Positions 43,830-63,716 of a stretch of DNA of 64,000 nt are shown in pieces. The stretch spans positions 16,012 through 80,011 of the forward strand of contig JAGBLL010000059.1 of the NCBI GenBank assembly GCA_017635465.1. Reading direction: 5' to 3'. The DNA is from Bacilli bacterium. GTDB lineage: Bacteria; Bacillota_I; Bacilli_A; RFN20; CAG-826. The notes beneath the pieces were generated by a model. It was not told where the DNA came from. It searched no databases and was given only the letters and a program-made list of their open reading frames with translations. Numbering within the stretch: the stretch's first letter is position 1; every line of letters starts with the position of its first letter. The position numbers and the translations under genes were made by a program.

Positions 43830-45404
43830 TTAGACGGCGAATAAGTAGTCAACTAAAGTGTATTCACTCTTATCTGGAAGTGTGATGTAAGTATCTCTAT
43901 TTTCATCAGTAATTCTTTCATAAGTGTGATCAATGAAGTATGTTTTTTGATACACGTCTCCACCGAATTCATAGTTTTGAACGAGTTCAATACTGAAGTT
44001 AACTAATTTACCATCTCTAATGGTGTACATCATTTTTTGAGTGGCTGGCATTGGTGTGCCAAATGGAATACCACTGTTAGATTCATCATCTTGATCAGCT
44101 TTTTCATCGTTGAAGATGATTGTTGCGTCAAGGAAGAAATCTTTTTCTGATGGATTGCCTTGTTCGTCTAAAAGCATACCGGCTTGGTTTCTTTCGACGT
44201 TAGAGTAATTGGCAGTAATTAATTCTAATGAATCGGCTGTGATGCGAGCGTCTTCAAGGCTATCTGTGAAGATATCTCTACCAATAGTGAACATGTTATC
44301 AAGAATGTCGAGTAATGGCGCCACTCTGTTATTCACTGTTGGATCTTCTGGCATGTAGTCAACCGTGGAAACTGGGAAGTAGTTTTTCACATCACCTTTT
44401 GTATGATAAACATAAGTATCATAGTATTGGTTTGTGTTGAAAATCCATTCCATATCGACGAATGACATAGCGCCGTCTTCGGTTTTTGTATCACCATCAG
44501 TTTCAATGATACGGAAGTAAGCTTCGTCTTCACTGACAACCATTGTTTCATCCCAAACATGGTAGAGTTGACGTTTGCCATTTTTATAAGTAGCCATTTC
44601 ACGTAATTCGTGATCGACGATTTCGGTTAATCCAGAATCATCGATTTCGCCAACCTTATTTGCAAGAGTATTGATTTGATCTTGGTCATTTCTAACTGGT
44701 TCAACCTTGTAATCATTTGTTGTCTTACCATAAGCAGGATCACCTTCGACAGCGGCATCAATTTCTGCTTGTGTATAGTAGACACCTGGAGTTTCAGGAA
44801 CAAGACCATTATAGACATCAACAACAACGTTTCTCTTCACATCTGGGTGAGCTTTATCACTCACTTCGATGACAGTTTGGCCAGCCTTTAAACCCTTAAC
44901 GTTACCGTTAGCGTCAACACTTGCCACTGTTTCATCGAGTGATTTGAATGATAAATTATCCGCTGGTTGAAGAAGTCTAGCGAGACCTCTGATTTGTTTT
45001 GTGCTGTATTGGCTATTGTTGCCATTGTCGACTACAAGAGCTAAGTTTCTGTAGTTCAAAAGTAAGTAATCAGAATAGTCTTTATCAGCTGGATAGCTTT
45101 CTTCTGCTTCAACATCAGGAATGATGATGTCAGTAGTCACTGGCTCTGGAGTTGAGCTAGAAGAAGGTGCTTGTGAGCTCGATGGAGCTTGTGAACTTGA
45201 TGGAGTTTGAGAGCTGGATGATGGAGCTGCTGAACTTGATGGAGCTTGTGAACTTGGAGCAGCAGAGCTTGGTTCAGAAGATGGAACAACTGAACTAACT
45301 GGTGCTGGTTCAGAAGAAGGTTCAGCAGATGATGTTTTTGTGTGGCAAGCGGCTAAGCTTGCGACAGCCGCAATAGAAAGGAGTAAAAGTACTTTCTTTT
45401 TCAT
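43830..45404 (-). CDS. Lipoprotein with Ser/Pro/Ala linker, Big_2-like Ig domain and ~330-aa unknown C-terminal domain
   Basis: 524 aa. MKKKVLLLLSIAAVASLAAC lipobox, then a linker of about 70 aa (SSEPSSAAPSSQAPSSS..). SLDETVASVDANGNVKGLKAGQTVIEVSD resembles bacterial Ig-like group 2. GGAGG is the SD. Confidence 0.75.
   Translation of the reverse strand: MKKKVLLLLSIAAVASLAACHTKTSSAEPSSEPAPVSSVVPSSEPSSAAPSSQAPSSSAAPSSSSQTPSSSQAPSSSQAPSSSSTPEPVTTDIIIPDVEAEESYPADKDYSDYLLLNYRNLALVVDNGNNSQYSTKQIRGLARLLQPADNLSFKSLDETVASVDANGNVKGLKAGQTVIEVSDKAHPDVKRNVVVDVYNGLVPETPGVYYTQAEIDAAVEGDPAYGKTTNDYKVEPVRNDQDQINTLANKVGEIDDSGLTEIVDHELREMATYKNGKRQLYHVWDETMVVSEDEAYFRIIETDGDTKTEDGAMSFVDMEWIFNTNQYYDTYVYHTKGDVKNYFPVSTVDYMPEDPTVNNRVAPLLDILDNMFTIGRDIFTDSLEDARITADSLELITANYSNVERNQAGMLLDEQGNPSEKDFFLDATIIFNDEKADQDDESNSGIPFGTPMPATQKMMYTIRDGKLVNFSIELVQNYEFGGDVYQKTYFIDHTYERITDENRDTYITLPDKSEYTLVDYLFAV
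45165..45290 (-). repeat. Short direct repeats encoding the Ser/Pro/Ala linker
   Basis: The 19-mer gatggagcttgtgaacttg occurs at 45181-45199 and 45238-45256, within a run of related 15-21-nt units. Confidence 0.6.
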
Positions 45405-45417
45405 CTTAGTCTACCTC

Positions 45418-48400
45418 CTAGTTATCAATCCAAGCATCTTTGTTCTTCGCGGAAGTAACAAAGTTTTCTGATGGAGCACCCCAATCGCCTGTAGCACCGT
45501 CTTTAATACTTAAGTTGTAATAAACTTCAATATTCCAGTACTTGCCATAGTTATCGACTTTGAATGGATCTCTAATCCAATCGGTTTCTGGTTTCTTTTC
45601 ATCCATCAATTTGAAGACTCTGATAATTTCGTCTCTAATTTCATTAGCGACTTGTTTGCTCATCACAATCTTGTAACCATATGTGGCATCTGGGACGAAT
45701 TCGAGGTCATAGTTACCACTACCGAAGACGTAGATGGAAATACGTGTAACATCAAATTTCACTGTATTGTTAACATCTTTGAAGAAGTCTGTTGTGACGT
45801 AGAATGTCGCACCATCATTGAAATCATTTTGAGTATAGGTCATGTATGATTTCTTAACGGATTTGATGTTTTGACCATTGTCAACAACACCGCCGTGGTC
45901 AGCAACAGCCCATAAGGCATCGAATGACCAAATCTTGTCATCATAGACTAATGGTTTCTTTGTGTTAACTTTAGAAGTATCACTGCCCCAGTTAAGTGTG
46001 AAGCCAGAGGAGTTATCACTCTTTAAGACTTCTAAGAAGTTTAATGGGTTATATGTATTACCACTAATAGCACCAAAGCCTAAGTCGAATTGACCTTTCA
46101 TAAGGTATTCGTTATAAACTTGTTGCCAGTCAGTAACTGCATCTTGTTCAACTTCAAGTTTAACTGTACCATTACAAACTCTATCATCGTTGAATGCGCT
46201 TTCGAAGTAACCTTTGATTTCTTCGCCGTATTCTTTGACGTCAGTTTGATACATCCACTTAATGTGAATTGTAATAACTGTTGGTTTGGATTTGGTACCT
46301 TTAACGAGTTTGCCTTCTTTAACTAATTCTTTAACAGCGTTAGAGAAGCATAAGATTGCTTTATCTTTGGAGTAACCGAATAATGAATTACCTTCACTAT
46401 CTTTAACTTCATAAGCGTGGACAGCGGCCTTATGGGCATCACTATCGTTATATGATTTACCATTTTCTGGATCATTTAAGTATGAATCAGCGAAATAGTT
46501 AATGGATGGATTAACACCACGGTTACCAGCGAATGTCTTTCTATCGATGGAGTAGAATAAACCGTTTAAGAAGTTATCGTTACTCATCCATGGTTTGACA
46601 TCCCAGTTGGAGTTCTTATTGATCTTACCGTTAGGACCAAATAATTCATCCCACATTTCTTGTGTACAAGAGTTGACGTTTAATTTGAATGTGGAGTCAC
46701 CTCTGGTCTTATAAACACGTGGTTTACCTGTTTCTTCAGAAATGTGTTTTGTTGGAATACCACAGCTATCAAGCATACCAGCGTTAAATTGTTTATAAAT
46801 GGCATCAGCGTCGCTAGAAGCATCGATGACGATTAATTTAACACCAGCAATTTTATATCTGCCTGGTTCGTTCCAATTGTCGTTCTTTTTGAAGACGATT
46901 GTTTTGTTCTTTTGCCATTCTTCTAACATGTATGGGCCAACAGATAATGTGTAGTCAACAATTTTGTCTCTGTGAGCTGCGGAAACAGCAGTGTTGTTGT
47001 TGAATGTACCATATCTTTGGGCACCATCTTTTAAGGAACCTTCACCAATGGTTCTGATGAAATCTTCACTCATTGGGGAGAGTAAGTTAGAAGAGAATGT
47101 GTACATCGCGGTGAATCTATCGATAGCGTTTAAGATTGTTAATTCGATGTAGTCACCGTTTGTGTTATCATGACCAGTTTTGACACCTAAGCTGCCTTCA
47201 CTTGTCATCTTATTCCATAAGTTCTTTGCATCTTCATCAGATAATTCTTTAGATCTGGTGTTGAATGAAAGAGCACCTTTGATACCGTATGTTTGGTCAG
47301 CGGCCATTTCGGTACCACGTTTTAAGTTGTGGGAACCTGTGAGGAGTAAACGATAAGCGAATTCATAGTCATCAATTGTGACAGGAACATTATCGAAATC
47401 TTTACCCCATGATGTGCCGTTATAGCGATATTTGATACCACCATCGGCACCAGTCTTAACATAGATTCTCCATGTTTTGTATAAACCTAATGGGTTTGGA
47501 TTTTCACCTGGTTTGACTTCATTGCCATTGAAAACTGGAATTGGTCTGGTGAAATCTTGAGAAACACCATTATATGTGACTTTATCTTTAGCGAGAACTG
47601 GATACCAGACGTATTGGTCTTTAGTAGCGTTCATCTTTGTGCCCCAGAAGGAAGCAGTAATGTAACCTTCTAAGTCAGAAACTTGGCTACCTGTATCGTT
47701 TCTAGCATTGATGGTCTTTGGATCGCTTGAAGAAGCGCTGTGGAGGTATCTTTTGTAATTTGGATTTTCTTCAGTAGCTAAATCCGCATCAACTGTACCT
47801 TCACTTAATAAACCAAAGCCATAACCAGTAATGTAGTTAGTGGTTGGTAAAGTAACACGTTCACTATATTTAACGAAACCACCATTTTCGAAAAGGGTGA
47901 TACCTGTTAAATGGTTATCCATGGCGTATTTTTCTAATTGGCCAAGGATTTCTGTTCTCTTTGTAACAGCTTCAGCACCCGCTAAAGAAGCGTAGTTATA
48001 ACCGCCAGAAGCTAAGACAGCATCGGTAATGGTTAAATCTAAGTATCTTTGGAGTCTGGAAGTGGATTCTCTAACAGTAATTCTCACAGAACCTTTGCTA
48101 ACAGCGGTTACAACACCGTTTTCAACGGTAGCAACGGCTGGAGCATTGGAGATGTAAGAATAAACTCTAGCGGTTCCATTATTGTTTTGTTCAGTAATTT
48201 CAATGACGTCTGTTTGACCTTTGTTAAGGGAAACAGCACCGCTTTGTAAAGCAACACTGAAACTGAATTGAGCAGATGGAGTAGAGGATGTTGTTGGAGT
48301 CGCACTGCTTTGGCCACCAGGTTGGCTAGAAGCTGAAGTTTGTGAGCTGGTTGGTGGAACACTTGCGCCACCATCACTAGATGGTCCAGGAACAAGGGAA

Positions 48401-48525
48401 GAAGTTTGACTTGTTGGAGTAACACTAGCTGGAGTGGATTCTTTTGGTTTGTTATCGCAGCCGACTAAAGCACCGACTGTCATTAAACCAGTAACAACTA
48501 AAATCGCAGGAAATTTCTTTTTCAT
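45418..48525 (-). CDS. oppA: Giant oligopeptide-binding lipoprotein (OppA-like, SBP family 5) with N-terminal Big_2-like domain
   Basis: 1035 aa. Lipobox ALVGC, then a Ser/Thr/Pro linker. NAPAVATVENGVVTAVSKGSVRITV is Ig-like. SBP5-like blocks are VTIDDYEFAYRLLL, VGPYMLEEWQKNKTIVFKKNDNW and IDASSDADAIYKQFNAGMLD. GGAGG is the SD. Confidence 0.8.
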   Translation of the reverse strand: MKKKFPAILVVTGLMTVGALVGCDNKPKESTPASVTPTSQTSSLVPGPSSDGGASVPPTSSQTSASSQPGGQSSATPTTSSTPSAQFSFSVALQSGAVSLNKGQTDVIEITEQNNNGTARVYSYISNAPAVATVENGVVTAVSKGSVRITVRESTSRLQRYLDLTITDAVLASGGYNYASLAGAEAVTKRTEILGQLEKYAMDNHLTGITLFENGGFVKYSERVTLPTTNYITGYGFGLLSEGTVDADLATEENPNYKRYLHSASSSDPKTINARNDTGSQVSDLEGYITASFWGTKMNATKDQYVWYPVLAKDKVTYNGVSQDFTRPIPVFNGNEVKPGENPNPLGLYKTWRIYVKTGADGGIKYRYNGTSWGKDFDNVPVTIDDYEFAYRLLLTGSHNLKRGTEMAADQTYGIKGALSFNTRSKELSDEDAKNLWNKMTSEGSLGVKTGHDNTNGDYIELTILNAIDRFTAMYTFSSNLLSPMSEDFIRTIGEGSLKDGAQRYGTFNNNTAVSAAHRDKIVDYTLSVGPYMLEEWQKNKTIVFKKNDNWNEPGRYKIAGVKLIVIDASSDADAIYKQFNAGMLDSCGIPTKHISEETGKPRVYKTRGDSTFKLNVNSCTQEMWDELFGPNGKINKNSNWDVKPWMSNDNFLNGLFYSIDRKTFAGNRGVNPSINYFADSYLNDPENGKSYNDSDAHKAAVHAYEVKDSEGNSLFGYSKDKAILCFSNAVKELVKEGKLVKGTKSKPTVITIHIKWMYQTDVKEYGEEIKGYFESAFNDDRVCNGTVKLEVEQDAVTDWQQVYNEYLMKGQFDLGFGAISGNTYNPLNFLEVLKSDNSSGFTLNWGSDTSKVNTKKPLVYDDKIWSFDALWAVADHGGVVDNGQNIKSVKKSYMTYTQNDFNDGATFYVTTDFFKDVNNTVKFDVTRISIYVFGSGNYDLEFVPDATYGYKIVMSKQVANEIRDEIIRVFKLMDEKKPETDWIRDPFKVDNYGKYWNIEVYYNLSIKDGATGDWGAPSENFVTSAKNKDAWIDN

Positions 48526-48528
48526 ATA

Positions 48529-51500
48529 CTATTTACCTCCTTCTTTTCTTTTTTTAAGGATTAGTAATGATGCGCCCATTAAAGCTGGGATAGCAATTGT
48601 AAGACTTAATGTCGCTAAAGCACCATTGCAACCTGATTTGGCGGCTGTCGCTTCTGGAATCACCACTGTTTGTGATGGATTTGTTGGAGCTGGTGTATTA
48701 GCAGGACCTGTAGCGGCGAACTTGGTGAGTCTGACATCACCTTTAATCTTTTCGCTCGCGCCTGTATTAGTATTAACAAAGGATACTTTATTATCAGCGG
48801 CTAATGTGAAGTCGTGATTGACGCTAAGGCCTGTGCCTTGGACCATGTCCGCACCTGCCATAAAGTCATCGAAGTCCTTGAAGTGAACGATACAACCTGT
48901 TCTGCCTCTAGCGAAGTCAGTCGCGCCGATGAATAATCTCTTATTGGCTAAACCTTCGGAGATTTCTTCGATACATTCATCAACGAATTCTTTGGATTCA
49001 TCAATGTAGTAGAGTTTCTTTTCATTATCGTATTGAAGATCAACACGGTTGTAACCGATAACACCATAGGAGAGTTTAACGTCGTCTAAGTAAATTCTGA
49101 CACGGTCTTCACCCACTAATTTGTATTGGGAAACACTCTTCACTACTGGAGCATCAGAGTCAATGTGGATGGTGTAAGAATTACTAACCCATGACTTGTC
49201 ATAAGCTAATTGATAATTGAATGTTAATTCGTATTCACCACTAGCGAATTTTTCGCCTGTTGTTTCATCGAATAATGGAACAATGGCGTAAGCTCTATGG
49301 GCAACGTAACCTGCTGATAAGTAACCAGCATCAACGTGTGATTTGTATAATGCCCATCTATCAGCGGTATCGCCGAAGAGCATATCTTCTAAAGCGGAGG
49401 TGTAAATTGCTTTACCTGTGGCTTTATCTTTAATTGTGAAATAGTTATCGTTAACAGATCTAAGCATGAATTGTTGGATGATCATTGTGTTGGTGTTTTC
49501 ACTACCAATGTAGATATCCTTGCTTGGTTCACTTGTGTATTCGTTATCAAGTGGATCTGTACCAACTTTGTAGAAGCCTGTTAAGCCATCGAACGCTAAG
49601 TCGTTTTCTAAAACTTTATCGATATTGATCTTTTGTGGAGCTTCAGCATAACCGGCAACGATCATGGATTCCATGTTAGCTTTATCTTTACCGACTAATG
49701 ATTTAGCAATGTCGTTAGCTAAATATGATGGATAAACTTTTGTTGGATCTTTTTCAAAGTTGAATGGTTCAGCAACTGGGACAGTTCTATAAGAAGCATC
49801 TGGGTTCTTATCTGTACCAGAATAGAAACCTAAATATGGGATGGATAAGTCAACACCATTGGCAGCTTTGTCTTTTAATGTGACGAAGCCTTCAATCATA
49901 CAACCATTTTCATAAACATCTAAGATTTCTTTCTTTTGTGTTTCTGTTAATGAGTATGGATTGATGGTAATTGTGCTTGTACCTGGGGCAACAGAGACTT
50001 GTTGACCAGTAATCTTGGCGATTTCAACATCTTTAACGGATTGAGCAGTATAGCTTGGAAGTGGTTCCCAGAAAACATCCGTTGTCGCGGAGTTGTAATA
50101 GTAACCTTTCTTAATAACTGTCTTTCTTGTTTCTTTGCCACCAGCGGCAACAGCAGCTTGGTCAGCTTCGTAGTCTTCTTGGCTAGCATAGTATTCGATG
50201 TCTTTGTCCGCTTTCACGGCGTCTTTATAAGCGACTTTACCAGTAGCGGTCATCATCTTTTCAAGATCTTTATCGTAATATCTCATACCACTGAACATTT
50301 CGATACTGTCAACAGTACCTTTGAAGTTATATTCTTTGGTAACGATATCATTTGGTTTAGCAATAGCTGGTCTCATGACTGTTAAGGTAACGTCATAATT
50401 CTTTGTTTCTTCGCTTTCATTGTGAGCTAAGAATGATAATTTGATATCACCTCTAGCGATGTCAGCGTTGTTTCTTAAAGCAATTTTGGCTTTACCGATT
50501 GGATTACCAGCAAGGTCTTTACCTTCTAAATAAACCTTTGTATTTAAAGCGCCGTTGAGGTCAACCATACCTGCGCCTTGAATTCTTGGTGAGGTGACGG
50601 AGAATGTTTCAACTTTGTCTTCTGGATTAGCTGTATAGTCTTTCATTGGATCAGCAGTTGACATCATTCTCATGTTAACTGTTTCTCTATAAGTATTGAT
50701 TTGGGCTAATTCTTCGTTTGTTAACTTTCTACCAGCAGCTTTAGCGGCTTGATAAATAGGAGCAGTAACTTCAGAAAGAACAACGGCTTGTGCACCAGCG
50801 TTATTTGGAGCGGACATAGATGTACCACTTAAGTATTGGTAGCATTTATATTTCATCGCTTCACGTTCTTCTTTTGTTAAGTTTGTCATGGCGTGTTCTG
50901 GAACAGCACCTCTAATGTTATCACCAGGAGCGGTGATTTCTGGTTTGAGATCTAAGTCAAATGTGGCACCATCAGTGGAGAATTCACTAACTGTGTATTT
51001 GGCTGGGTTATCACTAACTTGTTTGTTGATGATACCGAAAGAACCAGATTCAGCACTTTCAAAGAACGCTTTATCTTTAAATAAGACAAGGGCACATGGC
51101 ATTGTTGGGTTGAAACCATCACCGAAGCTACAACGGAAGTTGAAGCTGGAGGCTGTTGGGTCGTTATTGATAATGACAAGGGCGATAGCACCTTTATCAG
51201 CGGCAACAGCGTATTTATCAGCGAACGCTGTACTACCACGGTTAACGACGGCGATTTTGCCTTCAACGTTTAAGTTCTTATAATCAGCGGATGTACCAAA
51301 ACCTGGAACATAAACCCAATCAACTGTGCCGGTTGGATTACCTTCACCGTCTTGTGGGAAAACTTCTTTAATACGGAATTCTTTATCGTAGTCATCATCT
51401 AAACCTGGTCTATTGACGATTTGGTCTTCGAAGGCGATGTTCTTATTGCCGGCTACGAAAGCGTTTTCGTAGAAGATTTTGGTTGGGTGACCAGAAGCAA

Positions 51501-52778: not shown

Positions 52779-52806
52779 ATTATACACGCATGAAAAAGTG
52801 TGTAAA
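52779..52806 (-). promoter_or_regulatory. Promoter of the S8 protease-oppA-lipoprotein operon
   Basis: Minus strand reads TTTACA (52801-52806) - 16 nt - TATAAT (52779-52784). The roughly 40-nt leader contains the inverted repeat TTGTGT-GCGT-ACACAA (52746-52761). Confidence 0.55.
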
Positions 52807-52840: not shown

Positions 52841-53272
52841 TTATGAAAAAGACGAATATAGTTTGACGTTATAAATAATTTCAAGAACGATTAAAACGAT
52901 TGTAAGTAATATTCCCGCTAATAAAATGGCAATGAAATTAAATGAGGAATTATCTCTCTTTTTTATCTTATCAGCACGGTAATCCGCAAAGCTTCCATCT
53001 CTTCTAGCATCTTTAGCAAAGAGCATGCTGCCCACTTGCTTAAAACCAAAAGAAATAGTATCAAAAGCCCCTAAATGTGCCATCCAGGACAATAAACCAA
53101 GCAAAAGGATGATGATTGTCGCAAAGCCAACGGAGCTCACTGCGTCACCAAAAGTTCTATCTCTTAAGAAGAACATCAAACAGAAAATAAGTGCTGCAAT
53201 CATCAAAGAAATAATGAATGTAACAAGATTCATAATCCAATGCTTTTTAAACTGTTCAAATGCTCTTTTCAT
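52841..53272 (-). CDS. Small membrane protein (DUF3899-like)
   Basis: 143 aa. Four hydrophobic helices with a central GAFDTISFGFKQ..F loop reminiscent of DUF3899. Confidence 0.55.
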   Translation of the reverse strand: MKRAFEQFKKHWIMNLVTFIISLMIAALIFCLMFFLRDRTFGDAVSSVGFATIIILLLGLLSWMAHLGAFDTISFGFKQVGSMLFAKDARRDGSFADYRADKIKKRDNSSFNFIAILLAGILLTIVLIVLEIIYNVKLYSSFS

Positions 53273-53845: not shown

Positions 53846-53874
53846 ATTTTCATTATACACTCGCGTGTTTTTAT

Positions 53875-53904
53875 AAAAAAGTTAGAGCGCCCGTATGAGC
53901 GCTC
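53875..53904 (-). terminator. Terminator after the M13 peptidase gene
   Basis: Minus-strand RNA has GAGCGC-UCAUACGG-GCGCUC followed by UAACUUUUUU. Confidence 0.6.
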
Positions 53905-53919: not shown

Positions 53920-56811
53920 TTACCAAATTTTAATTCTTTGTTCTTCTGGAACATACATCGCATCACCTGGTTCAATGCCATATGTTTCCACGAATTCATC
54001 GAATTGAGAAAGAGTAACATTAACTCTTAAATAATTGAATGGGTGAGGATCTTGTGCTCTATTTTCAACCTCACCAAGATTAATTGGATGGCTTGCCCAG
54101 ACATAGGCAAATGTTCTAAAGAATTTATCATAGTCAAAGTTTTCAACTTTCTTCGCCAATTGAAGAGCAATTTTCATACCACCCATATCAGCGGTCGCTT
54201 CACCATCAACAGTGTCGCCGTTGACGTTATAATTGTGCTTTAGTTCGATTTTATTATAGAAAGATATTAATTTGTTAACTTTAGTGTTGAAAGCAGACTT
54301 ATCTTCCGCAGTCCACCACTCATTTTGGTTACCATTTTCATCGAATTGAGAACCGCTCGAGTCAAAGGCGTGGGTAATTTCGTGGCCAATAACCATCGCT
54401 AGCATACCATATTTTTCTTCAACACTACTACCAAGGAAGCCTGATACTAAACCATTCAGAATGACAAATGAATTATCGGTAGGAGAATAGAAAGCGTTAA
54501 CCACGTAGCAGCGCATTGAATCAAACATTGCTAATTCCTCACTGCTCGCAAGAAGCATAGTGTCGACGTCTTTATTTAAATATGCTTTATAGATATCAAA
54601 CAAATTTTGAGGAGTAAGGCCTTCGCCTATCACCTTGCCAAATTTTGTATAGTAATCTGCAAAGCATGAGACGTATGACATCTTTTCTAGTTTTCTTTTC
54701 ATCTTGTACTTTGTCATAGCACTAAGCCAAGAATTATCCGCTAATGTTTTGTATGCATCTAAAACATCTTCGATTAATGCAGCAACTTCTGCCTTAATTT
54801 CTTCAGAACTGATAGTTTCAACATATGCTTGTTCAAATATGGTTGAGAAACATGTTTTAAGCATACCTTTTGCGATAGTGTCATCGTCATACCAATATAG
54901 GTTCGCTTCTTGGCTATAATAATCTGCCATCTGTGAAATGTATTGGTTAATGGTTTTATACTTATCAATACCCACTAAGAAACGCATATCATAAGCCAAG
55001 CGAGTGATAACCATATCTTTAAGATATTGATCTGAATTATTGAACATCATATTCAAACCATTAAGGTATATCTTATTGAATGAAATTCTTGTAGTAGGAG
55101 CCATGCCTAAATCAGTCAATGCAGATTTAACTTCAGCCCACGGCAATTGACTTAGTTTATATGTTGTTGTGCCAGAAACTCCACTATAGGCATCTGAATA
55201 AATCTTATAAAATATTTGATATTCCCGATCCTTAATTGAAGAAATATCGCTATTGCTATAACCGAGATTAAAGTAACTTGATAATTTAGTGAGAATGTTT
55301 GCAGCGCTAGAAGTTGTATTACCAAACAGCCATGCAAATTGAAGCGTGGAATAGGCTCCATTAAAGTATCCATCGTTAAGAGTAAGTTTATAACCATCAT
55401 CTGTTGGAGAAAGTTTTAATAATGAACTCTTAGAAGCAAAAATAGCTTTGGAATTAAGATATGTTTCTGCATCAAAATTTTGGAAATATGATGTCACAGC
55501 ATCAATAGCACCGTTTTTGAAATAGCCTAGAGCATCTCTTAATGCATCACCATTAGTGGTTTCATTAACAACATCACCACTATAAATGGCATCAAATACA
55601 GAATCTGCGATATCGCTGCATTCATCGAAAGCGCCACCACCGTTATCTCTAATTCTTTCGTAGTTAATTGATGTATAGAAGTCATCCTTCAATGACGGCT
55701 TTTTGATTTTATTAATTTCACCAACAATATTTGCGTTAATCCAAGGAGCGCCATTGATGTCACTTAATGTATATCCTGTTCTAGTTTCATATTGGACAGG
55801 GGTGAAAACAAATGTACCTGTCGCATTATATTCGGCGGTATATGTGACATTTTCGGTCACTTTTTTAATTTCTGGTGACCAACCCTTGAAAGTAAATTCG
55901 GCATTAGGTTTATTATTTCTTACTGGTTCTTGTCCATCATATGTTGGAACTGTGCCATATAGAACTTCTTTATCAACTTCTAAAACAGAACCATCATAAT
56001 TAACCCAAGTGACAATATATTTTCTAACTTCACTATTATATGAAGCTGTATATTCAGCATCACCGGTCACAGATGTAACACTTGGTGACCATTTATCAAA
56101 GACATATGAAAATTCAGCGGTGCTTTCTTTAACTGGGACTTCATCTCCATAGCTTGGAACAGTGCCATATGGGACTTCATCTTCTTTTAAAACAGTACCG
56201 TCATCATCTTTCCATGTGACTTTATATTTTCTTAACTCTTGTTTAAAAGAAGCTACATATGTTGTATTTCCAGTAATTGGACCTTCGTTAGGAGACCATT
56301 TATCAAATGTATAATCGTATTCAGCAGTACTAGCTTTAGTTGGTGTTTCTCCATCGTATGTAGGAGTGGTTCCATAGAAGACATCTTCGCTCTTTAACAC
56401 ACTACCGTCTTCGTTCTTCCAGGTAACTGTGTACTTATTTGTTTCGGTTTTAAATGTGGCGACATATTCAGCATTACCGGAAACTGGCTTCACTTCTGGA
56501 GTCCAACCAGTCCAAATATATGTGAACTGTGCATCACTTGCGCGGCTTGGGGTTAAACCATCGTATGTTGGAGTCGTATCTTTTTGAACATTTTCGTCAA
56601 TTTCTAAAACCTTGCCATCATAGTTTTTCCATGTGATGGTATAGGTTACTGGTTTTGGTGCTTCAGAACTACTGCTAAAAACACTACTTGGAGCAGCGCT
56701 TGATTGATCACTAGATTGACTTAATGATTCACTGCTTGTTTTAACATTGCAGCTGGTTAATAGGATAGATAATGTTCCGATAACCGCTAGTAAATTAATA
56801 GACTTTTTCAT
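53920..56811 (-). CDS. Lipoprotein M13-family zinc metallopeptidase (PepO/neprilysin-like) with four N-terminal InlB-type B repeats
   Basis: 963 aa. Lipobox LLTSC and a Ser-rich linker. Four ~67-aa repeats (YTITWKNYDGKVLE..TPTYDG..FTYIWTGWTPEV..). C-terminal HEITHAFD (HExxH), GEATADMGG (ENIAD-type block), NAFYSP and final W. Confidence 0.9.
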   Translation of the reverse strand: MKKSINLLAVIGTLSILLTSCNVKTSSESLSQSSDQSSAAPSSVFSSSSEAPKPVTYTITWKNYDGKVLEIDENVQKDTTPTYDGLTPSRASDAQFTYIWTGWTPEVKPVSGNAEYVATFKTETNKYTVTWKNEDGSVLKSEDVFYGTTPTYDGETPTKASTAEYDYTFDKWSPNEGPITGNTTYVASFKQELRKYKVTWKDDDGTVLKEDEVPYGTVPSYGDEVPVKESTAEFSYVFDKWSPSVTSVTGDAEYTASYNSEVRKYIVTWVNYDGSVLEVDKEVLYGTVPTYDGQEPVRNNKPNAEFTFKGWSPEIKKVTENVTYTAEYNATGTFVFTPVQYETRTGYTLSDINGAPWINANIVGEINKIKKPSLKDDFYTSINYERIRDNGGGAFDECSDIADSVFDAIYSGDVVNETTNGDALRDALGYFKNGAIDAVTSYFQNFDAETYLNSKAIFASKSSLLKLSPTDDGYKLTLNDGYFNGAYSTLQFAWLFGNTTSSAANILTKLSSYFNLGYSNSDISSIKDREYQIFYKIYSDAYSGVSGTTTYKLSQLPWAEVKSALTDLGMAPTTRISFNKIYLNGLNMMFNNSDQYLKDMVITRLAYDMRFLVGIDKYKTINQYISQMADYYSQEANLYWYDDDTIAKGMLKTCFSTIFEQAYVETISSEEIKAEVAALIEDVLDAYKTLADNSWLSAMTKYKMKRKLEKMSYVSCFADYYTKFGKVIGEGLTPQNLFDIYKAYLNKDVDTMLLASSEELAMFDSMRCYVVNAFYSPTDNSFVILNGLVSGFLGSSVEEKYGMLAMVIGHEITHAFDSSGSQFDENGNQNEWWTAEDKSAFNTKVNKLISFYNKIELKHNYNVNGDTVDGEATADMGGMKIALQLAKKVENFDYDKFFRTFAYVWASHPINLGEVENRAQDPHPFNYLRVNVTLSQFDEFVETYGIEPGDAMYVPEEQRIKIW
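55825..56646 (-). repeat. Four tandem ~200-nt coding repeats (Listeria-Bacteroides / InlB B-repeat-like)
   Basis: Protein residues 56-329. Each unit starts Y(T/K/I)(I/V)TW(K/V)N.DG.VL and ends Y.A.(F/Y). Confidence 0.7.
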
Positions 56812-57388: not shown

Positions 57389-60300
57389 ATGAAAAAAATT
57401 TCAAAATTGTTTGTCGGCTTGGCTTTAGGTGGCATGCTCTTAACTGGCTGTAACTTAAGTGGCCCAGCTGCATCTTACAATGCTACAAACTATAGACAAC
57501 AAGATGTCTACAAGTTGTACGTTGCCGAAGGTGGCGCTCTAACATACGAAGAGTGGTTAGAATCAATCAGAGGCGCCGACGGCTCACAATTCTATGCTGA
57601 TGTCAATGACCCAACTGCAGCAGGTGGTAAAGATGGTGACGTGTTTGTTAACATCTCTTCCTGGGATCTCTTCTTAAAGATCGGTGGCAATTGGCAAAAG
57701 ATCGGCAACCTCAAAGGTGAACAAGGTCCAAAAGGTGACAAAGGTGATAAGGGTGACAAAGGTGACCAAGGTCTTCCTGGCGCTGATGGTTCCCAAATCT
57801 ATGCTGATGTCAATGATCCAGCAGCCGCTGCTGGTAAAGACAACGACTTATTCATCAACATCAACTCTTGGGATGTCTTCCTTAAAGTGAATGGTGCTTG
57901 GAATAAAGTCGGTAACATTAAAGGTGCTCAAGGCTTACAAGGTGAACAAGGCTTACAAGGTGTTGCAGGTTCACAAATCTTCGCCGACGCACAAGACCCA
58001 GCCGCTGATGGCGGTAAAGAAGGCGATTTATTCATTAATATCGCTACATGGGATGTCTTCCTCAAATTAAACGGTGCTTGGGCAAAAATTGGTAACATCA
58101 AAGGTGCTCAAGGTGAACAAGGTCCAAAAGGCGACAAAGGTGACAAAGGTGATCAAGGTGATAAGGGTGATACTGGTGAAGCTGGTAACTCATTCAGCAA
58201 TGGTTACGGTCGTCCAGATGATGCCGATGGCAAAGATGGTGACACATATCTCGATTTAAATAATTTAGATATCTACGCCAAGAACAATGGTCACTGGGCT
58301 AAAGTCAACAACATGAAAGAAGAACTCAGATGGGACTTAGAAGTCGAAACCGAAATGAACAAATATCTCGGTGGCGCACTCCCATTTGTTGATCTCAATC
58401 CTGATACAATGTATCACAGCTTCAGCACTTATTATGAAAGTTGGTATGGATTCGATCTTTATGTCATCGGTGATGATAACCCATACAACTTAGTCGAAGA
58501 CTATGGTGAAAGATTAATTGCTGCTGGTTTCGAATATAATCCAGCCGCAGCTGAATTCGGTGGAGATTACATCAAAACAACTCCAAGAGGCTATCAAATC
58601 GAAGTTTCCTTCAACTGGTTTGAAGCTTCATCAAGCTACGAAGCTGGTAACGAAATTGATGTTTACATGCCTCCATATGTTGATCCATATTCAGCAGAAT
58701 TCTTTGAAGATCTCGGATTCGAATTAGTCGAAGGTTATCCAAAAGATCTTGTCGACGCAACCCTTCAACTAGATCCTCAAGACCTTCCAGGTGTCAACCT
58801 TGATGGTGATTGGTATGTTGATAGTGACAAAAACGATATGGGCGCTGATGGTGTCTACTACTACGTTTTAGCCGCTACAGAAGGCGAATTCGCTGCTGAT
58901 TTAGCTGGCCAAGTTGAAGCACTCGGTTTTGAATATAATGAAGAATATGAATGTTGGCTTGATGAAAACCAAGATCGCGAAGTCGATATTATACAAAGAG
59001 ATGGTTGGACATTTGCTAAATTCTTTGGTCCAACACTCATGGAACCATACGATGAAGCATACTTCCTTGAAAACGGTTACAATGCAGTTGAAGGATTCCC
59101 AGATGAAATCGTTGAATTAGCTTACAAAGAAGACAACTGGTTCGATGGCGTTAATGTTGATGGTGATTGGTTTGCCAAGTACTCAACAACAAAATATGCA
59201 AGTGGTTCACACGCTGGTACAATGAGAACAACTGCTTATTTAGCAACAGAAGGTGACTACGTTGCTGAATTTGAAGCCAACATCCAAGAAGCTGGATTCT
59301 CGTGGGTTAGCAAATACTCTGACTGGGAATTAGCAACTAACGATATGGCTTGCATCACAGTCGAATATGTCCGTGGTTACACAATGATTTACATCGGTGG
59401 TGACTATCTCGATGATCCAGATTATGTTCCTGCAGAAAACGTTGAAGCACCAGAAGTTGCCGCTGCAATCGATGCATTCTTCGCTGATTATGACATTGAA
59501 ACAAATGCTCCAGCTTACTATGCTCCATCAACATACAGAGTTGAAGCAGGTAATGGCTTCATTAGAATCTACAATTCAGTTTTAGCTGATATGCAAGCTT
59601 ATGAAACAGCCTTAGTCGCTGCTGGTTGGACAACATCTCACCCAAGTGCAAGTCGGCCAAATGACTATGTTGCTACCCTTGGTGAAACAGGCGCTACATT
59701 AGCGATTGAAGAATATTCTTCATATGTCAAAATTACATTCTCTTACGAAGAACCAGTTCCTCCAATGACTGCTGCTGATGCCACTGCTGAATTATTAGCA
59801 TACTGGGCTACATTAGGAATTGATCCAGCTGATATCGAATTACCAGATTTCGAAACAGCTAACGGTGTCTATCTCTCTTCTGACCAATATGTTGAATCAA
59901 GTGGCTTCTATTTAGTGCAAGTTGGCAATGCTACTGCTGAAGAATACGCTGCTTACATCGAAGACTTAGAAACAGCTGGTTGGAATCTTGAATACTTCAA
60001 TAACACAGAAAGTGGCCTTACTGGTTATGCCTGTACATTCGGTGAATCAGGCACAGTCCCATGCATGGAAGTTCAAGATCACCTTGATGCTGGTTATGTT
60101 GCTATCTTAGCTTACAGTACATTCATTATGGGTGAAATCACACCTCAATCAGTTATCGCTAACATCGCTAGTATGGTTACACAAACAGGCGAATACGATG
60201 ATTTAGGTAACAATACATATGCTCTTGAAGCTGGTTACTTAGCTTCCAGCGTTTCACTTGACAAGATTATTGGTTGGATTGAAACAGCCTTTGTTCCAGA

Positions 60301-60478
60301 AGGCTTCACAATGGTTGAAGACTGGACACCAGATGTCTATGAAGGTATCGCTGCTCAAACTCGTACATATTACAACGAAGATGCTGACGTCGTTCTTGAA
60401 TTCAAAATCTTCTCATGGTCACATCCTACTGCTGGTGACATCAACTCATTCTACGCTAAAGCTTACTACGGTAACTAA
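57389..60478 (+). CDS. Lipoprotein with collagen-like Gly-X-Y tracts alternating with a ~45-aa conserved module, plus repeated acidic C-terminal modules
   Basis: 1029 aa. Lipobox LLTGC. G-X-Y runs are GEQGPKGDKGDKGDKGDQGLPGADG, GAQGLQGEQGLQGVAG and GAQGEQGPKGDKGDKGDQGDKGDTGEAG. Intervening modules read Q(F/I)(Y/F)AD..DP.A.GGK.GD.F(V/I)NI..WD.FLK..G.W.K.GN(L/I)KG. AAGGAG is the SD. Confidence 0.85.
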   Translation: MKKISKLFVGLALGGMLLTGCNLSGPAASYNATNYRQQDVYKLYVAEGGALTYEEWLESIRGADGSQFYADVNDPTAAGGKDGDVFVNISSWDLFLKIGGNWQKIGNLKGEQGPKGDKGDKGDKGDQGLPGADGSQIYADVNDPAAAAGKDNDLFININSWDVFLKVNGAWNKVGNIKGAQGLQGEQGLQGVAGSQIFADAQDPAADGGKEGDLFINIATWDVFLKLNGAWAKIGNIKGAQGEQGPKGDKGDKGDQGDKGDTGEAGNSFSNGYGRPDDADGKDGDTYLDLNNLDIYAKNNGHWAKVNNMKEELRWDLEVETEMNKYLGGALPFVDLNPDTMYHSFSTYYESWYGFDLYVIGDDNPYNLVEDYGERLIAAGFEYNPAAAEFGGDYIKTTPRGYQIEVSFNWFEASSSYEAGNEIDVYMPPYVDPYSAEFFEDLGFELVEGYPKDLVDATLQLDPQDLPGVNLDGDWYVDSDKNDMGADGVYYYVLAATEGEFAADLAGQVEALGFEYNEEYECWLDENQDREVDIIQRDGWTFAKFFGPTLMEPYDEAYFLENGYNAVEGFPDEIVELAYKEDNWFDGVNVDGDWFAKYSTTKYASGSHAGTMRTTAYLATEGDYVAEFEANIQEAGFSWVSKYSDWELATNDMACITVEYVRGYTMIYIGGDYLDDPDYVPAENVEAPEVAAAIDAFFADYDIETNAPAYYAPSTYRVEAGNGFIRIYNSVLADMQAYETALVAAGWTTSHPSASRPNDYVATLGETGATLAIEEYSSYVKITFSYEEPVPPMTAADATAELLAYWATLGIDPADIELPDFETANGVYLSSDQYVESSGFYLVQVGNATAEEYAAYIEDLETAGWNLEYFNNTESGLTGYACTFGESGTVPCMEVQDHLDAGYVAILAYSTFIMGEITPQSVIANIASMVTQTGEYDDLGNNTYALEAGYLASSVSLDKIIGWIETAFVPEGFTMVEDWTPDVYEGIAAQTRTYYNEDADVVLEFKIFSWSHPTAGDINSFYAKAYYGN
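57572..58309 (+). repeat. Three and a half tandem ~195-nt coding repeats (collagen tract + module), including 9-nt GGTGA(C/T)AA(A/G) Gly-Asp-Lys units
   Basis: Protein residues 62-307. Nucleotide similarity between units is visible, for example tgggatgtcttcct(t/c)aaa..aa(t/c)ggtgcttgg recurs at about 57869 and 58049. Confidence 0.75.
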
Positions 60479-60502
60479 GAATAGAGCTTAAAAAAACAAA
60501 TT

Positions 60503-60529: not shown

Positions 60530-60627
60530 AACGCACGCAATATTACACTTTTCTTAGTTTTGTCATTGTTTGATAAAATCAAAAAATATTACTTTTTCTT
60601 GCTAAATTCATCAATAAGCATAAAATG

Positions 60628-60644
60628 TATACTAAATTAGTATA
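60628..60644. promoter_or_regulatory. Perfect 17-bp palindrome upstream of the C11 protease gene (operator candidate overlapping a TATACT -10-like hexamer)
   Basis: TATACTAA-A-TTAGTATA. Lies 24 nt upstream of ATG 60669 and just upstream of AAGGAGG. Confidence 0.45.
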
Positions 60645-60668
60645 TCCATCAAGAAAAGGAGGAATAAC

Positions 60669-63600
60669 ATGGCAAACAAGTTAAAAAAATTGTTAGTTGC
60701 AGGTTCATTGGTGTCTAGCATCTTTGTAGCGTTAGTTGCTTGTAATAAACCACAAGGCCAATCTAATCAAAGCAATGCATCCACCACTCCCGCTGCTAGT
60801 GTTGTTTCTAGCGTTCCGGCTAGTAGCTTGCCAGGTGTTTCATCTGTGACACCTACACCAAGTTCATCTGCCGCGCCAAGTTCATCAGAAGCAATTTCTT
60901 CAAGTGAAGCTCCAGCGCCAGTCGTGTTAACAGGCATTACAGCAGTTAATAACCAAACAAGTTATGCATATGGCAACGAACAATTAGATCTTACAGTTAC
61001 CGCTAATTATTCTGACGGCACCTCTGTAACTATTACCGATTATCAAGTTACAGGTTATGATGCCACAAAGACTGGTGAGCAGAGCCTCACAGTGTCATTC
61101 GAAGGAAAGACATGCTCAGTCAAAGTTAAAGTTGATAATCCAGTGTTAGTCAATATCAGTGCTAGCACAAATAAAGAAGCCTACGAATACGGTGAAGACT
61201 TAGATATCATTGTCAAAGCCCACTACTCCGATGGTTCTGAAGTTGTAATCGATAATTACACAGTTACTGGTTACAACGCTGAAAATCCTGGTGAACAAGA
61301 TTTAACAGTTACTTATGAAGGTAAAACATGTAACTTAAAGGTTCTTGTTAATGATCCAGTATTAGTGAATATCACCGCAGTTAGTAACAAAGAAAGCTAC
61401 GAATACGGTGAAGACTTAGATATCATTGTTGTGGCTAAATACTCCGATGGTTCTGAAGTAACATTAGATAACTATGAAGTTACTGGTTATGACGCTCAAA
61501 ATCCAGGTGAACAAAACTTAACAGTTACTTATAAAGGTAAAACATGTAACTTAAAAGTTCTTGTTAACGAAAGGGAGAACAAATTCCCACTCGATAAGTT
61601 AAATAGTTTCTTACAATTAGAAAATATTACCACTCCTGTCATCTCCCCAGTCGGTTATGATGCTTGGGAAGAAAAAACTGAACCAGAACAAGATGGTAGC
61701 AAATACTTCATTGCTTCCACTAATGATGAAGGACAAGCGGGTGTTGATACAATTGCTGACCAATACGCTGTTGCCTTGCAAGCGGAAGGTTGGACAGTCA
61801 ACAACGATAATGGTTCCTATGTCGCTTACAAAGCAGAAGGCGACGTTGAAGTATCATTTAAAACAGTTAACAAAGTGTTCTCATTACGTATCAATTCATT
61901 CGTTGAATTCCCAAATCAAAAAATTACTGCTTCCCCAATTAAAACAAAAGCCACTATTGAAGATGGCCAAACAATTATCTTCGGTAATGTTGCAAAAGGT
62001 TTAGTTATTAATGACTTTGCAGATGGCAAATTAAAAGCAGAAAGTTGCAGATCTACTGATACCAAATTAGATGGTATTGAAAAAGATGTCTGGCGTTTCA
62101 CAATTAATAAAGTTGGTACCAGTTTCACATTCACTGATATCTATGGCAGAAAATTAGGCGCTACTGGTCTTGGTCAATTAGCTTTTGATGAAGGTTCTAC
62201 AGAATGGTCAATGGTTATCACATCTAGATCCACTATTATCGCTAACGCTAATAAAGATTTTGGTAAACTTTGCATCAATTTAGATAACAATACACTTACC
62301 ACTTATTCAAACGTTTTCGATGGTAACTTAGTGTACACACAAATTCTCAAATTATCTCAAGAAGAAATTATCTATCCAACAGGCATCGCTCTTGAAGGTA
62401 AACAAGAACTCGCAATCGGTAAAAAGAATAGCATCGATGTAAAATACATCCCAGAAAACGCTAATTCATTAAGCAAGATTACATGGTCTTCATCCAATGA
62501 AAGCATTGCTAAAGTTGATGAAAATGGTTTAGTTACTGCCATTGCAGCAGGTAACGCCACCATTACCGCTAAAACATTTGCTAAGAGAACAGTATTAGAA
62601 GCTTCATTCAATGTTGAAGTTAAAGAAGTTGTCTTAGATGCTTGGACCATTATGCTCTACATCTGTGGCGCTGACCTTGAAAGCGATAACGGCTTAGCAT
62701 CTTCTGACATTACTGAAATCTTAAAAGTCAACAATCAACCAGAAGACGTCAATATCATTATCGAAACAGGTGGTTCAACATCATGGCACAACTATGGTAT
62801 TGATGCTTCCAAACTATCCCGTTACCACGTTGAAAACAAATCCCTCGTCTTAGATGAAAAACTCACAAAAGAAAATATGGGTAAGCAATCAGTGTTTGAA
62901 TCATTCTTAACTTGGGGCTTACAAGAATATCCAGCAGAAAAAATGGGTGTTATCTTATGGAACCACGGTGGTGCTTTAGATGGTGTTTGCTTCGATAGCA
63001 CTGTTGGCTCAGACAATAGCTTAACCAATTCTGAAACCAAAGCAGCTTTCGAAAACGTCTTCCCAGCATTTGGTGTTAATAAGCTCGAATTCATCGGTTA
63101 TGACGCTTGCTTAATGCAAATTCAAGATATCGCTGAATTCAATTCACACTACTTCAACTATATGGTTGGTTCTGAAGAAGCTGAAGCCGGTGAAGGTTGG
63201 GTTTATGATAAGTGGCTTGATGATTTATATGAAGGCAAAGATACTCCAACAATTTTAAAAGCTAACTGTGATGCCTTCGTTGCTCAATATGGCGATGATC
63301 AAACTCTTTCTTACTTGAATTTATCCAAGATGGAAAACTATCACGCTAAATTTGAAGCGATGGCTGAAGCCATTAAGAGTACCGCTAAATCTAATTACAG
63401 TGCATTCAAAACATTGTTAAAGAGTGTCAAAGACTTTGGTGATATTAACTACTATTGGTATTCACAAAACGGCTATGATGCATATGGTGAAATCGATGGC
63501 TTAGACTTATTGAACAAACTTGGAAATAACGCCACTTATAGCGCATTCCAAGATGTGATTAATGAAGCTAAGACAGCATATACCTCATTAGTGGCATATT

Positions 63601-63716
63601 CTAGAAAAGGTAATGCCGCTGGCAACGCCAATGGCTTAGGCGTTATCTCTGGTGCTCCAGTTAACTATCCATCAAGTGAAACAGCATTCACTACTTGGAG
63701 AAGCATCTTCTACTAG
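60669..63716 (+). CDS. Lipoprotein clostripain-like cysteine protease (C11) with three Big_3-like repeats, an acidic AGW module, an unknown middle domain and a Big_2-like domain
   Basis: 1015 aa. Lipobox ALVAC and a Ser/Pro linker. Three ~72-aa repeats (..YEYGEDLDIIV.A.YSDGSEV..DNY.VTGY.A.NPGEQ.LTVTY.GKTCNLKVLV). ITWSSSNESIAKVDENGLVTAIAAGNATITA resembles Big_2. C-terminal C11 blocks are WTIMLYICGADLESDNG, VILWNHGGA (His) and FIGYDACLMQ (Cys). Confidence 0.85.
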   Translation: MANKLKKLLVAGSLVSSIFVALVACNKPQGQSNQSNASTTPAASVVSSVPASSLPGVSSVTPTPSSSAAPSSSEAISSSEAPAPVVLTGITAVNNQTSYAYGNEQLDLTVTANYSDGTSVTITDYQVTGYDATKTGEQSLTVSFEGKTCSVKVKVDNPVLVNISASTNKEAYEYGEDLDIIVKAHYSDGSEVVIDNYTVTGYNAENPGEQDLTVTYEGKTCNLKVLVNDPVLVNITAVSNKESYEYGEDLDIIVVAKYSDGSEVTLDNYEVTGYDAQNPGEQNLTVTYKGKTCNLKVLVNERENKFPLDKLNSFLQLENITTPVISPVGYDAWEEKTEPEQDGSKYFIASTNDEGQAGVDTIADQYAVALQAEGWTVNNDNGSYVAYKAEGDVEVSFKTVNKVFSLRINSFVEFPNQKITASPIKTKATIEDGQTIIFGNVAKGLVINDFADGKLKAESCRSTDTKLDGIEKDVWRFTINKVGTSFTFTDIYGRKLGATGLGQLAFDEGSTEWSMVITSRSTIIANANKDFGKLCINLDNNTLTTYSNVFDGNLVYTQILKLSQEEIIYPTGIALEGKQELAIGKKNSIDVKYIPENANSLSKITWSSSNESIAKVDENGLVTAIAAGNATITAKTFAKRTVLEASFNVEVKEVVLDAWTIMLYICGADLESDNGLASSDITEILKVNNQPEDVNIIIETGGSTSWHNYGIDASKLSRYHVENKSLVLDEKLTKENMGKQSVFESFLTWGLQEYPAEKMGVILWNHGGALDGVCFDSTVGSDNSLTNSETKAAFENVFPAFGVNKLEFIGYDACLMQIQDIAEFNSHYFNYMVGSEEAEAGEGWVYDKWLDDLYEGKDTPTILKANCDAFVAQYGDDQTLSYLNLSKMENYHAKFEAMAEAIKSTAKSNYSAFKTLLKSVKDFGDINYYWYSQNGYDAYGEIDGLDLLNKLGNNATYSAFQDVINEAKTAYTSLVAYSRKGNAAGNANGLGVISGAPVNYPSSETAFTTWRSIFY
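60924..61568 (+). repeat. Three tandem ~216-nt coding repeats (Ig-like Big_3-type domains)
   Basis: Protein residues 86-300. Units 2 and 3 share an identical 33-nt stretch, ctacgaatacggtgaagacttagatatcattgt. Confidence 0.75.

Follow-up and report, generated by a model that had tools for sequence, protein, structure and literature searches.

In lactococci and lactobacilli, the cell-envelope proteinase PrtP, with its maturase PrtM, supplies peptides to the oligopeptide permease (Opp), which in turn feeds peptidases such as PepO and PepT, and in L. lactis the pepO gene lies directly beside the opp genes. ScpA, a C5a peptidase, is a sortase-anchored and specific virulence factor without linkage to opp. 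Mollicutes such as Mycoplasma hominis (P100/OppA) have oversized, lipid-anchored OppA proteins, as well as Opp ATPases and permeases with insertions, and Bacteroides has lipoprotein peptidases of family C11 (fragipain). Here we analyse a stretch of 64,000 nucleotides from a Bacilli bacterium (positions 16,012 to 80,011 of contig JAGBLL010000059.1, assembly GCA_017635465.1), called the window below, where a gene for an S8 subtilase precedes an oppA-like gene and oppBCDF. Our best reading is that the lactococcal type of route, from proteinase through Opp to peptidases, would here be hard-wired in a single operon, with an anchoring that is predicted to be sortase-free.

Protein breakdown in the rumen governs the loss of dietary nitrogen, and RFN20-type Bacilli, to which the genome belongs, are common and uncultured in ruminant and equine guts. 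Literature searches on subtilisins with oligopeptide permeases or lipoproteins, and on transmembrane (TM) anchored cell-envelope proteinases, found no description of the S8-OppA-Opp module. An earlier reading of the window from its letters, the original prediction, had described a block of giant lipoproteins in which three proteases of different classes are joined to an Opp importer.

The S8 subtilase

The subtilase gene (48529..52731, minus strand) encodes a protein of 1400 amino acids (aa) that belongs to the cell-envelope-proteinase type (Pfam S8, E 1.9e-27). A signal peptide ending in LAGC is followed by an I9-like region, the catalytic domain, an Fn3-like region, a stalk and a C-terminal TM anchor. 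The triad Asp, His and Ser appears in subtilisin order together with the oxyanion Asn (D162, H260, N374, S638), and a PA domain (residues 473-549, E 8e-12) is inserted between N374 and S638. The His, the oxyanion Asn and the Ser align with those of the C5a peptidase structures 1xf1 and 3eif (E 4e-13). The fn3_5 match at residues 882-967 is weak (E 1.9e-4, 22.5 bits against a cut-off of 27.6), and the residues around it also align with the Fn region of ScpA. Inhibitor_I9 is matched at residues 36-109 with an E-value of 7e-4 and 20.7 bits, just under the Pfam cut-off of 21.2.

The assignment of the three proteases to families S8, M13 and C11 in the original prediction was right according to both Pfam and the alignments to solved enzymes, and the motifs that it quoted fall on the catalytic residues of those enzymes. 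In the alignments these residues are neither misaligned nor substituted. D162, H260, N374 and S638 are invariant in 33 of 33 relatives of the S8 protein, H810, E811, H814, E871 and D875 in 15 of 15 relatives of the M13 protein, and the dyad H766/C814 in 89 of 89 relatives of the C11 protein. Judged by these residues, all three enzymes appear catalytically competent.

Linkage of the subtilase to Opp

Relatives of the OppA-like protein were found at 41 loci in species-representative genomes. Nearly all of these are metagenome-assembled genomes (MAGs) labelled 'Bacilli bacterium' from rumen, omasum or horse faeces. Firmicutes bacterium CAG:449 and UBA3207 (locus L041) are among the 41, and UBA3207 is placed in order RFN20, family CAG-826 (PMC8957277). 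Counterparts of the window proteins also occur on ruminant metagenome scaffolds, and a contig of the MAG RUG12224, labelled 'uncultured Erysipelotrichaceae', carries them at 98% identity.

Linkage was counted in the 33 species-level loci where the sequence upstream of oppA extends for 4.5 kb or more. The recurring order, obtained by tblastn against related loci, is DUF3899, S8, OppA, a 524-aa lipoprotein and then oppB, oppC, oppD and oppF. In 30 of the 33 loci no more than about 20 bp separate the end of the S8 gene from oppA, and accepting one mis-called start brings the number to 31; only CAG:449 and a fragment depart from this. The adjacency persists down to 39-45% OppA identity. Further downstream, oppB is found within 7 kb of oppA in 32 loci, and the 524-aa lipoprotein gene adjoins oppA in 24.

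The two genes also share their translation signals. The S8 gene ends with AAA AGA AAA GAA GGA GGT AAA TAG, and the oppA ATG (48523-48525) follows three bases past the stop. The Shine-Dalgarno sequence of oppA, GGAGG (48536..48540, minus strand), lies inside the last S8 codons, GAA GGA GGT AAA TAG, i.e. the codons for the C-terminal Glu-Gly-Gly-Lys of the protease hold the ribosome-binding site of the next gene. Of 34 related loci, 29 have this arrangement, while S8 relatives that are not followed by oppA do not have the Gly-Gly ending. The conserved Gly-Gly is thus dictated by the downstream translation signal, and with the Shine-Dalgarno sequence inside the stop-proximal codons there is no room for a separate oppA promoter. 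The start of the 524-aa gene is likewise coupled to oppA, whose stop is overlapped by an AGGAGG. The best promoter-like site of the region, TTTACA-16-TATAAT (52779..52806, minus strand; 11/12, a consensus match only), is located just upstream of the S8 gene.

An exhaustive search with residues 201-1400 of the S8 protein as query gave 2589 relatives. Among remote representatives (32-42% identity), the six that were looked up all adjoin an Opp locus, with varying gene orders. The S8 gene may follow oppF, be convergent with oppABCDF, or precede DUF3899, oppA and oppBCDF; in another arrangement an M20 peptidase, S8, DUF3899 and oppA follow each other beside dnaA-dnaN, and in yet another a 2533-aa S8 protein with leucine-rich repeat domains is followed by an open reading frame (ORF), oppA and oppBC. 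Adjacency that survives gene rearrangement is a classical signature of functional coupling, here between the S8 protein and Opp. The synteny comparison therefore bears out the linkage of S8 to Opp that had been predicted, in many species and across rearrangements.

In two loci of a distant lineage (L054 and L058), dnaN is followed by the gene for a protein of about 1200 aa without a domain match and then by M20, S8, DUF3899, oppA and oppBCDF. The module is thus close to the replication origin there, and a PepT-like peptidase is joined directly to it.

One metagenome protein of 2488 aa (P0315, 73% identical) contains S8 and OppA in a single ORF, where the TM tail of S8 (..NKRKGGKQS) leads directly into the signal peptide and lipobox of OppA. 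It could be either a true fusion or a sequencing error; its topology would still permit signal peptidase II to split S8 from OppA.

Anchoring of the subtilase

In the C-terminal anchor of the subtilase, KSGCNGALATLSLTIAIPALMGASLLILKKRKEGGK (48532..48639, minus strand), a Cys motif is followed by a TM helix and a basic tail. The hydrophobic helix and the Lys/Arg cluster are kept in 32 of 33 S8-related loci, and G-C-N-G or G-C-G-G often precedes the helix. The lipobox, on the other hand, is canonical in just six of the 33, with ordinary signal peptides in the rest. In the S8 family at large, 84 of 123 full-length representatives have the TM helix with basic tail, 40 have a G-C-x-G motif and 6 have a lipobox. 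No LPXTG motif is present in the window protein or in any of these 123 representatives.

According to this, the mature S8 protein is most likely held by its C-terminal TM anchor, as predicted from the conservation of the tail. Where a lineage has lost sortase, a cell-envelope proteinase would be expected to have such an anchor. A survey reports that RFN20 lacks the sortases srtA/B and predicts that the families CAG-826 and CAG-288 are peptidoglycan-deficient (PMC10868615); a tail without LPXTG fits both the sortase-less order and the family.

The original prediction had proposed anchoring by lipid rather than by sortase for all of the giant proteins and had overlooked the C-terminal TM anchor. 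The proposal may stand for OppA, the 524-aa protein and the M13 protein, whose lipoboxes are conserved in their relatives. It fails for S8, where the rarely kept lipobox also precedes a probable prodomain that would be cleaved off.

The tail was compared with the NCBIfam models of sorting domains. Against TIGR01167, the model of the LPXTG anchor, it matches positions 10-34 only, which is the TM and charged part, and its matches to Synerg-CTERM and NPXTG are insignificant. Because the scan gave nothing but these, a reading of the tail as a known sorting domain was rejected and it can be assigned to no known sorting signal. In about 1 Mb of related DNA this type of tail was found on S8 proteases only and on no other kind of protein, so a general sorting system is not shown. 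No candidate for an enzyme that processes the tail was identified.

A tail with the Cys motif is also carried by a 422-aa subtilase which is convergent to oppF in a horse-gut MAG (L035, 11067-12335, minus strand). On this protein and on S8, the motif before the TM helix has the form G-C-(G/N/F/R)-G.

The binding lipoproteins and the importer

The OppA-like substrate-binding lipoprotein (45418..48525, minus strand) has 1035 aa and matches Pfam SBP_bac_5 with an E-value of 2e-16. After the lipobox LVGC comes a disordered linker of Ser, Pro and Thr; a Big_2 domain of the Ig-like type then leads to the peptide-binding fold, which belongs to cluster C, and another beta domain is added at the C-terminus. 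The AlphaFold2 (AF2) model of the protein has a pLDDT of 83.9, with residues 1-83 below 50. The top PDB folds for this model are pneumococcal AliB, AliC, AliD and AmiA and the OppA proteins of Listeria, Bacillus, Haemophilus and E. coli (E-values down to 4.6e-18, target TM-score 0.55-0.69). B. subtilis OppA bound to a PhrE-derived peptide is among the matches. The family profile, furthermore, matches DppE at 2.5e-6. The earlier call of an OppA-like binding lipoprotein is thus borne out by SBP_bac_5 and by the profile and fold searches, and the predicted model is that of an oligopeptide-binding protein.

The 524-aa lipoprotein (43830..45404, minus strand) is built from a signal peptide ending in LAAC, a Ser/Pro/Ala linker, a Big_2 domain and a domain with an open beta-sheet and helices. 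Pfam finds Big_2 alone. In the AF2 model (pLDDT 92.7) the Ig-like domain is followed by an open, curved beta-sheet packed with helices, and the fold search of the PDB gave no convincing match (TMq at most 0.23). A weak resemblance to a lipid-binding beta-trough was not accepted as evidence.

A terminator-like hairpin (43779..43803, minus strand; a 10-bp stem and a T run, a consensus match only) is located between the 524-aa gene and oppB. It may be an attenuator that raises the ratio of binding protein to permease.

Pfam finds two BPD_transp_1 permeases in the importer, of which one carries OppC_N, and two ATPases with oligo_HPY. All four genes are on the minus strand. The permease OppB (42567..43628) has 353 aa (BPD_transp_1, E 6.5e-38) and OppC (40427..42622) about 712-731 aa (OppC_N at 70-110, BPD_transp_1 at 546-728). 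The ATPase OppD (38407..40425) has 672 aa, with ABC_tran spanning 28-448 and oligo_HPY, and OppF (37175..38404) has 409 aa with ABC_tran and oligo_HPY. In OppC, about 430 additional aa are inserted after the OppC_N helix and before the permease core. In OppD, an insert of about 250 aa that is rich in Lys, Ala and Glu and probably forms a coiled coil is located inside the nucleotide-binding domain. The lengths of both inserts are conserved in related loci.

A small membrane protein of 143 aa with the domain DUF3899 (Pfam E 7e-10) is encoded at 52841..53272 on the minus strand. In most related loci its gene precedes S8; in remote loci it separates S8 from oppA. The oppA-oppBCDF operon of Enterococcus faecalis V583 also contains DUF3899 (bioRxiv 10.64898/2026.09.22.753285), so the link of DUF3899 may be to Opp generally. 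The protein may be an unrecognised Opp accessory protein.

Neighbouring genes and the rest of the window

The six ORFs of the predicted block of giant lipoproteins were all found where it had placed them, at 43830-45404, 45418-48525, 48529-52731, 53920-56811, 57389-60478 and 60669-63716. At the N-terminus of each, a Lys-rich n-region and a hydrophobic core lead to a canonical lipobox, which reads, in this order, LAAC, LVGC, LAGC, LTSC, LTGC and LVAC. A scan of all window ORFs from 100 aa upwards for a signal peptide ending [LVI][ASTVI][GAS]C matched no ORF besides these six; the clustering of predicted lipoproteins is therefore real and not due to chance. Four of these proteins, namely the 524-aa protein, OppA, M13 and C11, have a linker of Ser, Pro, Ala and Thr after the lipobox Cys. 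The block, however, is not made up of giant lipoproteins throughout, as the genes for DUF3899 and for a small GNAT acetyltransferase (53333-53860, between M13 and S8) lie in the same span and encode no lipoproteins.

The M13 metallopeptidase of PepO/neprilysin type (53920..56811, minus strand) is a lipoprotein of 963 aa with the lipobox LTSC. It matches Pfam M13 at 2e-41 and the NCBIfam PepO model at 3e-43; the M13_N match is weak (29 bits against a cut-off of 32). Its motifs are HEITH (810-814), GEATADMGG (E871, D875) and, for the NAxY/F substrate-binding motif, VNAFYS (N772). All three align with 9eyg, where HEMTH and GETLADYGG are the counterparts of the first two. Residues ~55-335 contain four tandem repeats of about 67 aa with the pattern Y-x-V-T-W-x-N-x-D-G ... 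T-P-T-Y-D-G ... W-S-P. Searches of Pfam (no useful E-value) and the PDB gave no assignment for these repeats. A terminator-like hairpin, again a consensus match only, follows the M13 gene at 53885-53904.

On the plus strand, a collagen-like lipoprotein (57389..60478; 1029 aa, LTGC, Pfam Collagen E 1e-8) has three G-X-Y runs at 110-136, 179-196 and 239-268. The runs alternate with four modules of about 45 aa (..DP.A..GK.GD.F.NI..WD.FLK..G.W.K.GN.KG). The C-terminal ~730 aa consist of repeated small domains for which Pfam and PDB searches gave no assignment, and a 'Phage_Cox' match of Pfam on this protein was treated as spurious. The last gene (60669..63716, plus strand) encodes the lipoprotein of the C11, or clostripain, family of cysteine peptidases (1015 aa, LVAC, Pfam C11 E 4e-29). 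After a Ser/Pro/Ala linker it has three Big_3 domains (3e-29), one Big_2 domain and then the C11 domain with H766 and C814. Its motifs WNHGGA (H766) and YDACLM (C814) align with WSHGDG and FDACYM of 6n9j.

These genes are linked to the operon only locally. M13 and GNAT are found upstream of it in a subclade of closer relatives, and the C11 and collagen-like genes lie beside M13 and S8 only where S8 is ~79% identical. Homologues of C11 at 43-46% identity are elsewhere, beside a GGDEF gene and hydrolases. As the linkage of M13 and C11 is local, the conserved unit is S8, OppA and Opp, and the idea of three protease classes forming a unit with Opp does not hold. The peptidase that had been named pepT is present as an M20 peptidase at 6374-7564, but it is 37 kb away and unlinked.

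A membrane protein with GGDEF and EAL domains is encoded near the operon (33240-35183, minus strand), and in other lineages (L045, L049) the C11 gene comes directly after a GGDEF gene. These neighbours of C11 hint at a connection with c-di-GMP.

The G+C content is 0.40-0.41 at 44000-52000 and 58000-60000, compared with ~0.32-0.35 over most of the window. The raised values of the lipoprotein genes are probably compositional, coming from proteins rich in Ser, Pro, Ala and Gly. Since the entire group has kept the operon, horizontal transfer is an unlikely source of the values at 44-52 kb. Elsewhere in the window, an SNF2-family helicase of 1025 aa is followed by a SWIM-domain protein and ORFs of 336 and 395 aa (14375-21617, minus strand). 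Neither of these two ORFs has a Pfam match, and the same is true for an 809-aa ORF at 27679-30108 (minus strand).

Proposed function and alternatives

We think it likely that the core of the locus is a peptide-foraging operon, which would consist of a surface S8 proteinase, the giant OppA, OppBCDF and cytoplasmic peptidases. From gene content, catalytic residues, folds, anchors, translational coupling and conservation we infer prodomain cleavage, surface location, substrates and a nutritional role as follows. The subtilase would be secreted and would probably shed its N-terminal I9 prodomain; in the window genome the lipid anchor would go with it. The C-terminal TM helix with its basic cytoplasmic tail would then keep the protease at the cell surface, where it would cut extracellular protein into oligopeptides beside the membrane. 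The lipid-anchored giant OppA, made from the same message, would capture the peptides for OppBCDF, and cytoplasmic peptidases would complete their breakdown. The conserved 524-aa lipoprotein and DUF3899 could be accessory parts, and the surface M13 PepO-like and C11 lipoproteins, located next to the operon in this lineage only, would probably widen the substrate range or trim long peptides. The protein-foraging apparatus of the original prediction is thus retained for the S8-OppA-Opp core but not with M13, C11 and the collagen-like protein as conserved parts.

Several observations weigh against this model. Subtilases normally cut off the I9 prodomain, but since the I9 match sits under its cut-off the cleavage is only inferred here. 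No PrtM/PrsA-like maturase or peptidyl-prolyl isomerase was found in the cluster or in related loci. The OppA-like protein is very divergent, and phmmer against the PDB gave no match for it. Co-transcription of S8-oppA with oppBCDF is uncertain because the hairpin parts the 524-aa gene from oppB. Finally, the case for M13, C11 and the collagen-like protein as members of one apparatus is weak, as they are linked in near relatives only.

A more far-reaching version is that the conserved module (S8 with its tail, DUF3899, giant OppA, the 524-aa lipoprotein and OppBCDF) is a self-contained and so far undescribed surface machine of gut Bacilli that are wall-reduced and lack sortase. The Cys-containing tail would then be a new sortase-independent signal for sorting or lipidation, comparable to MYXO-CTERM, and DUF3899 and/or the 524-aa protein would physically couple the proteinase to the importer and so channel peptides instead of releasing them. 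We regard this version as rather unlikely.

The same genes could serve signalling instead of nutrition, with S8 maturing secreted pro-peptides (pheromones) and OppA and OppBCDF importing the signals for quorum sensing. Opp systems do import signalling peptides in Bacillus and Enterococcus, Bacillus subtilisin-type proteases mature Phr peptides, and the tight coupling of S8 and oppA would suit a dedicated pair. The fold matches of OppA to AliB, AliC, AliD and AmiA, and to B. subtilis OppA with the PhrE-derived peptide, are in line with this. However, the conserved module shows neither an RRNPP-type regulator nor a small pro-peptide gene, and the PA and Fn3 architecture of a cell-envelope proteinase is typical of bulk protein degradation. 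The M20, M13 and C11 peptidases that were recruited nearby in different lineages also fit nutrition better, and we hold a signalling role to be quite improbable. Another reading is a locus for colonisation or host interaction, where the surface proteases and the collagen-like protein would serve mainly as adhesins and to degrade surface proteins of the host or of competitors, in the manner of C5a peptidase or of a fragipain-like C11 enzyme, and the link to Opp would be secondary. C5a peptidase is the closest solved relative of the S8 domain, but the similarity (E 4e-13) is at the level of the family. The adjoining collagen-like lipoprotein resembles Scl-type adhesins, and Ig-like stalks of Big_2 and Big_3 domains are common in adhesins; yet collagen-like and C11 genes are linked in the closest relatives only and the conserved unit is S8-OppA-Opp. 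The organisms are MAGs from the lumen of rumen and hindgut with no evidence of host contact, and no evidence was found for the degradation of host matrix that had been suggested earlier. To a colonisation locus we accordingly give a low probability.

A further alternative is that the gene order is inherited without any functional coupling in a slowly rearranging lineage, and most of the 33 loci do come from one related group of MAGs. Against this, the adjacency survives at least five gene orders or orientations in remote relatives, the oppA ribosome-binding site is embedded in S8 codons, and the linkage of M13 and C11 decays quickly in the same genomes. We consider inherited synteny very improbable.

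A proteinase gene whose translation is linked to that of its own oligopeptide importer is strong genomic evidence for life on extracellular protein in these reduced-genome bacteria. The locus would also be an example of how a cell-envelope proteinase can be retained at the surface after the loss of sortase, and perhaps of the wall, and it offers candidates for new Opp accessory parts in DUF3899, the 524-aa lipoprotein and the Cys-containing tail.

Comparison with known systems

The S8 tail is like MYXO-CTERM and Synerg-CTERM in that a Gly/Cys motif, a TM helix and a basic cluster are located at the C-terminus of a protease. It scores ~9 bits against the Synerg-CTERM model of NCBIfam, where the cut-off is 22.5, and differs from both systems in being confined to S8 proteins in the ~1 Mb of related DNA. 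The solved protein that best matches the S8 sequence is the C5a peptidase ScpA/ScpB (1xf1, 3eif), which the subtilase resembles in the contexts of the His, Asn and Ser, in the position of the PA insertion, and in the Fn3-type domain after the catalytic domain.

The window C11 protein aligns with 6n9j in the His-Gly and Asp-Ala-Cys contexts of the gut C11 peptidases (PmC11, 6n9j/6mzo, fragipain). It differs from these by lying behind three Big_3 domains, one Big_2 domain and an unassigned domain, and by its occurrence in a Bacilli-type organism. The giant OppA and the Opp proteins with insertions may be likened to those of Mollicutes; both groups are wall-reduced, low-GC, host-associated relatives of Bacilli. 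We know of no S8 proteinase inside a Mollicute opp operon.

The analogy with the lactococcal route, drawn already in the original prediction, holds in its logic and in its enzyme families. Common to both are a surface S8 subtilase with a PA insert and Fn3-like domains, a family-5 oligopeptide-binding lipoprotein with OppBCDF, an M13 endopeptidase of PepO type near opp, and an M20 PepT-like peptidase in the genome. The differences are in the arrangement and in the anchoring. Lactococcal prtP is separate from opp and often on a plasmid, whereas the proteinase gene of the window belongs to the predicted opp operon, where its translation is coupled to that of oppA. The window cluster shows no maturase like PrtM, and the predicted anchor of S8 is a C-terminal TM helix in place of LPXTG and sortase. 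PepO is cytoplasmic in lactococci, while the M13 protein of the window is predicted to be a lipoprotein at the cell surface. The window OppA has roughly double the normal size, with Ig-like and extra beta domains, and DUF3899 and the 524-aa lipoprotein are added as conserved partners.

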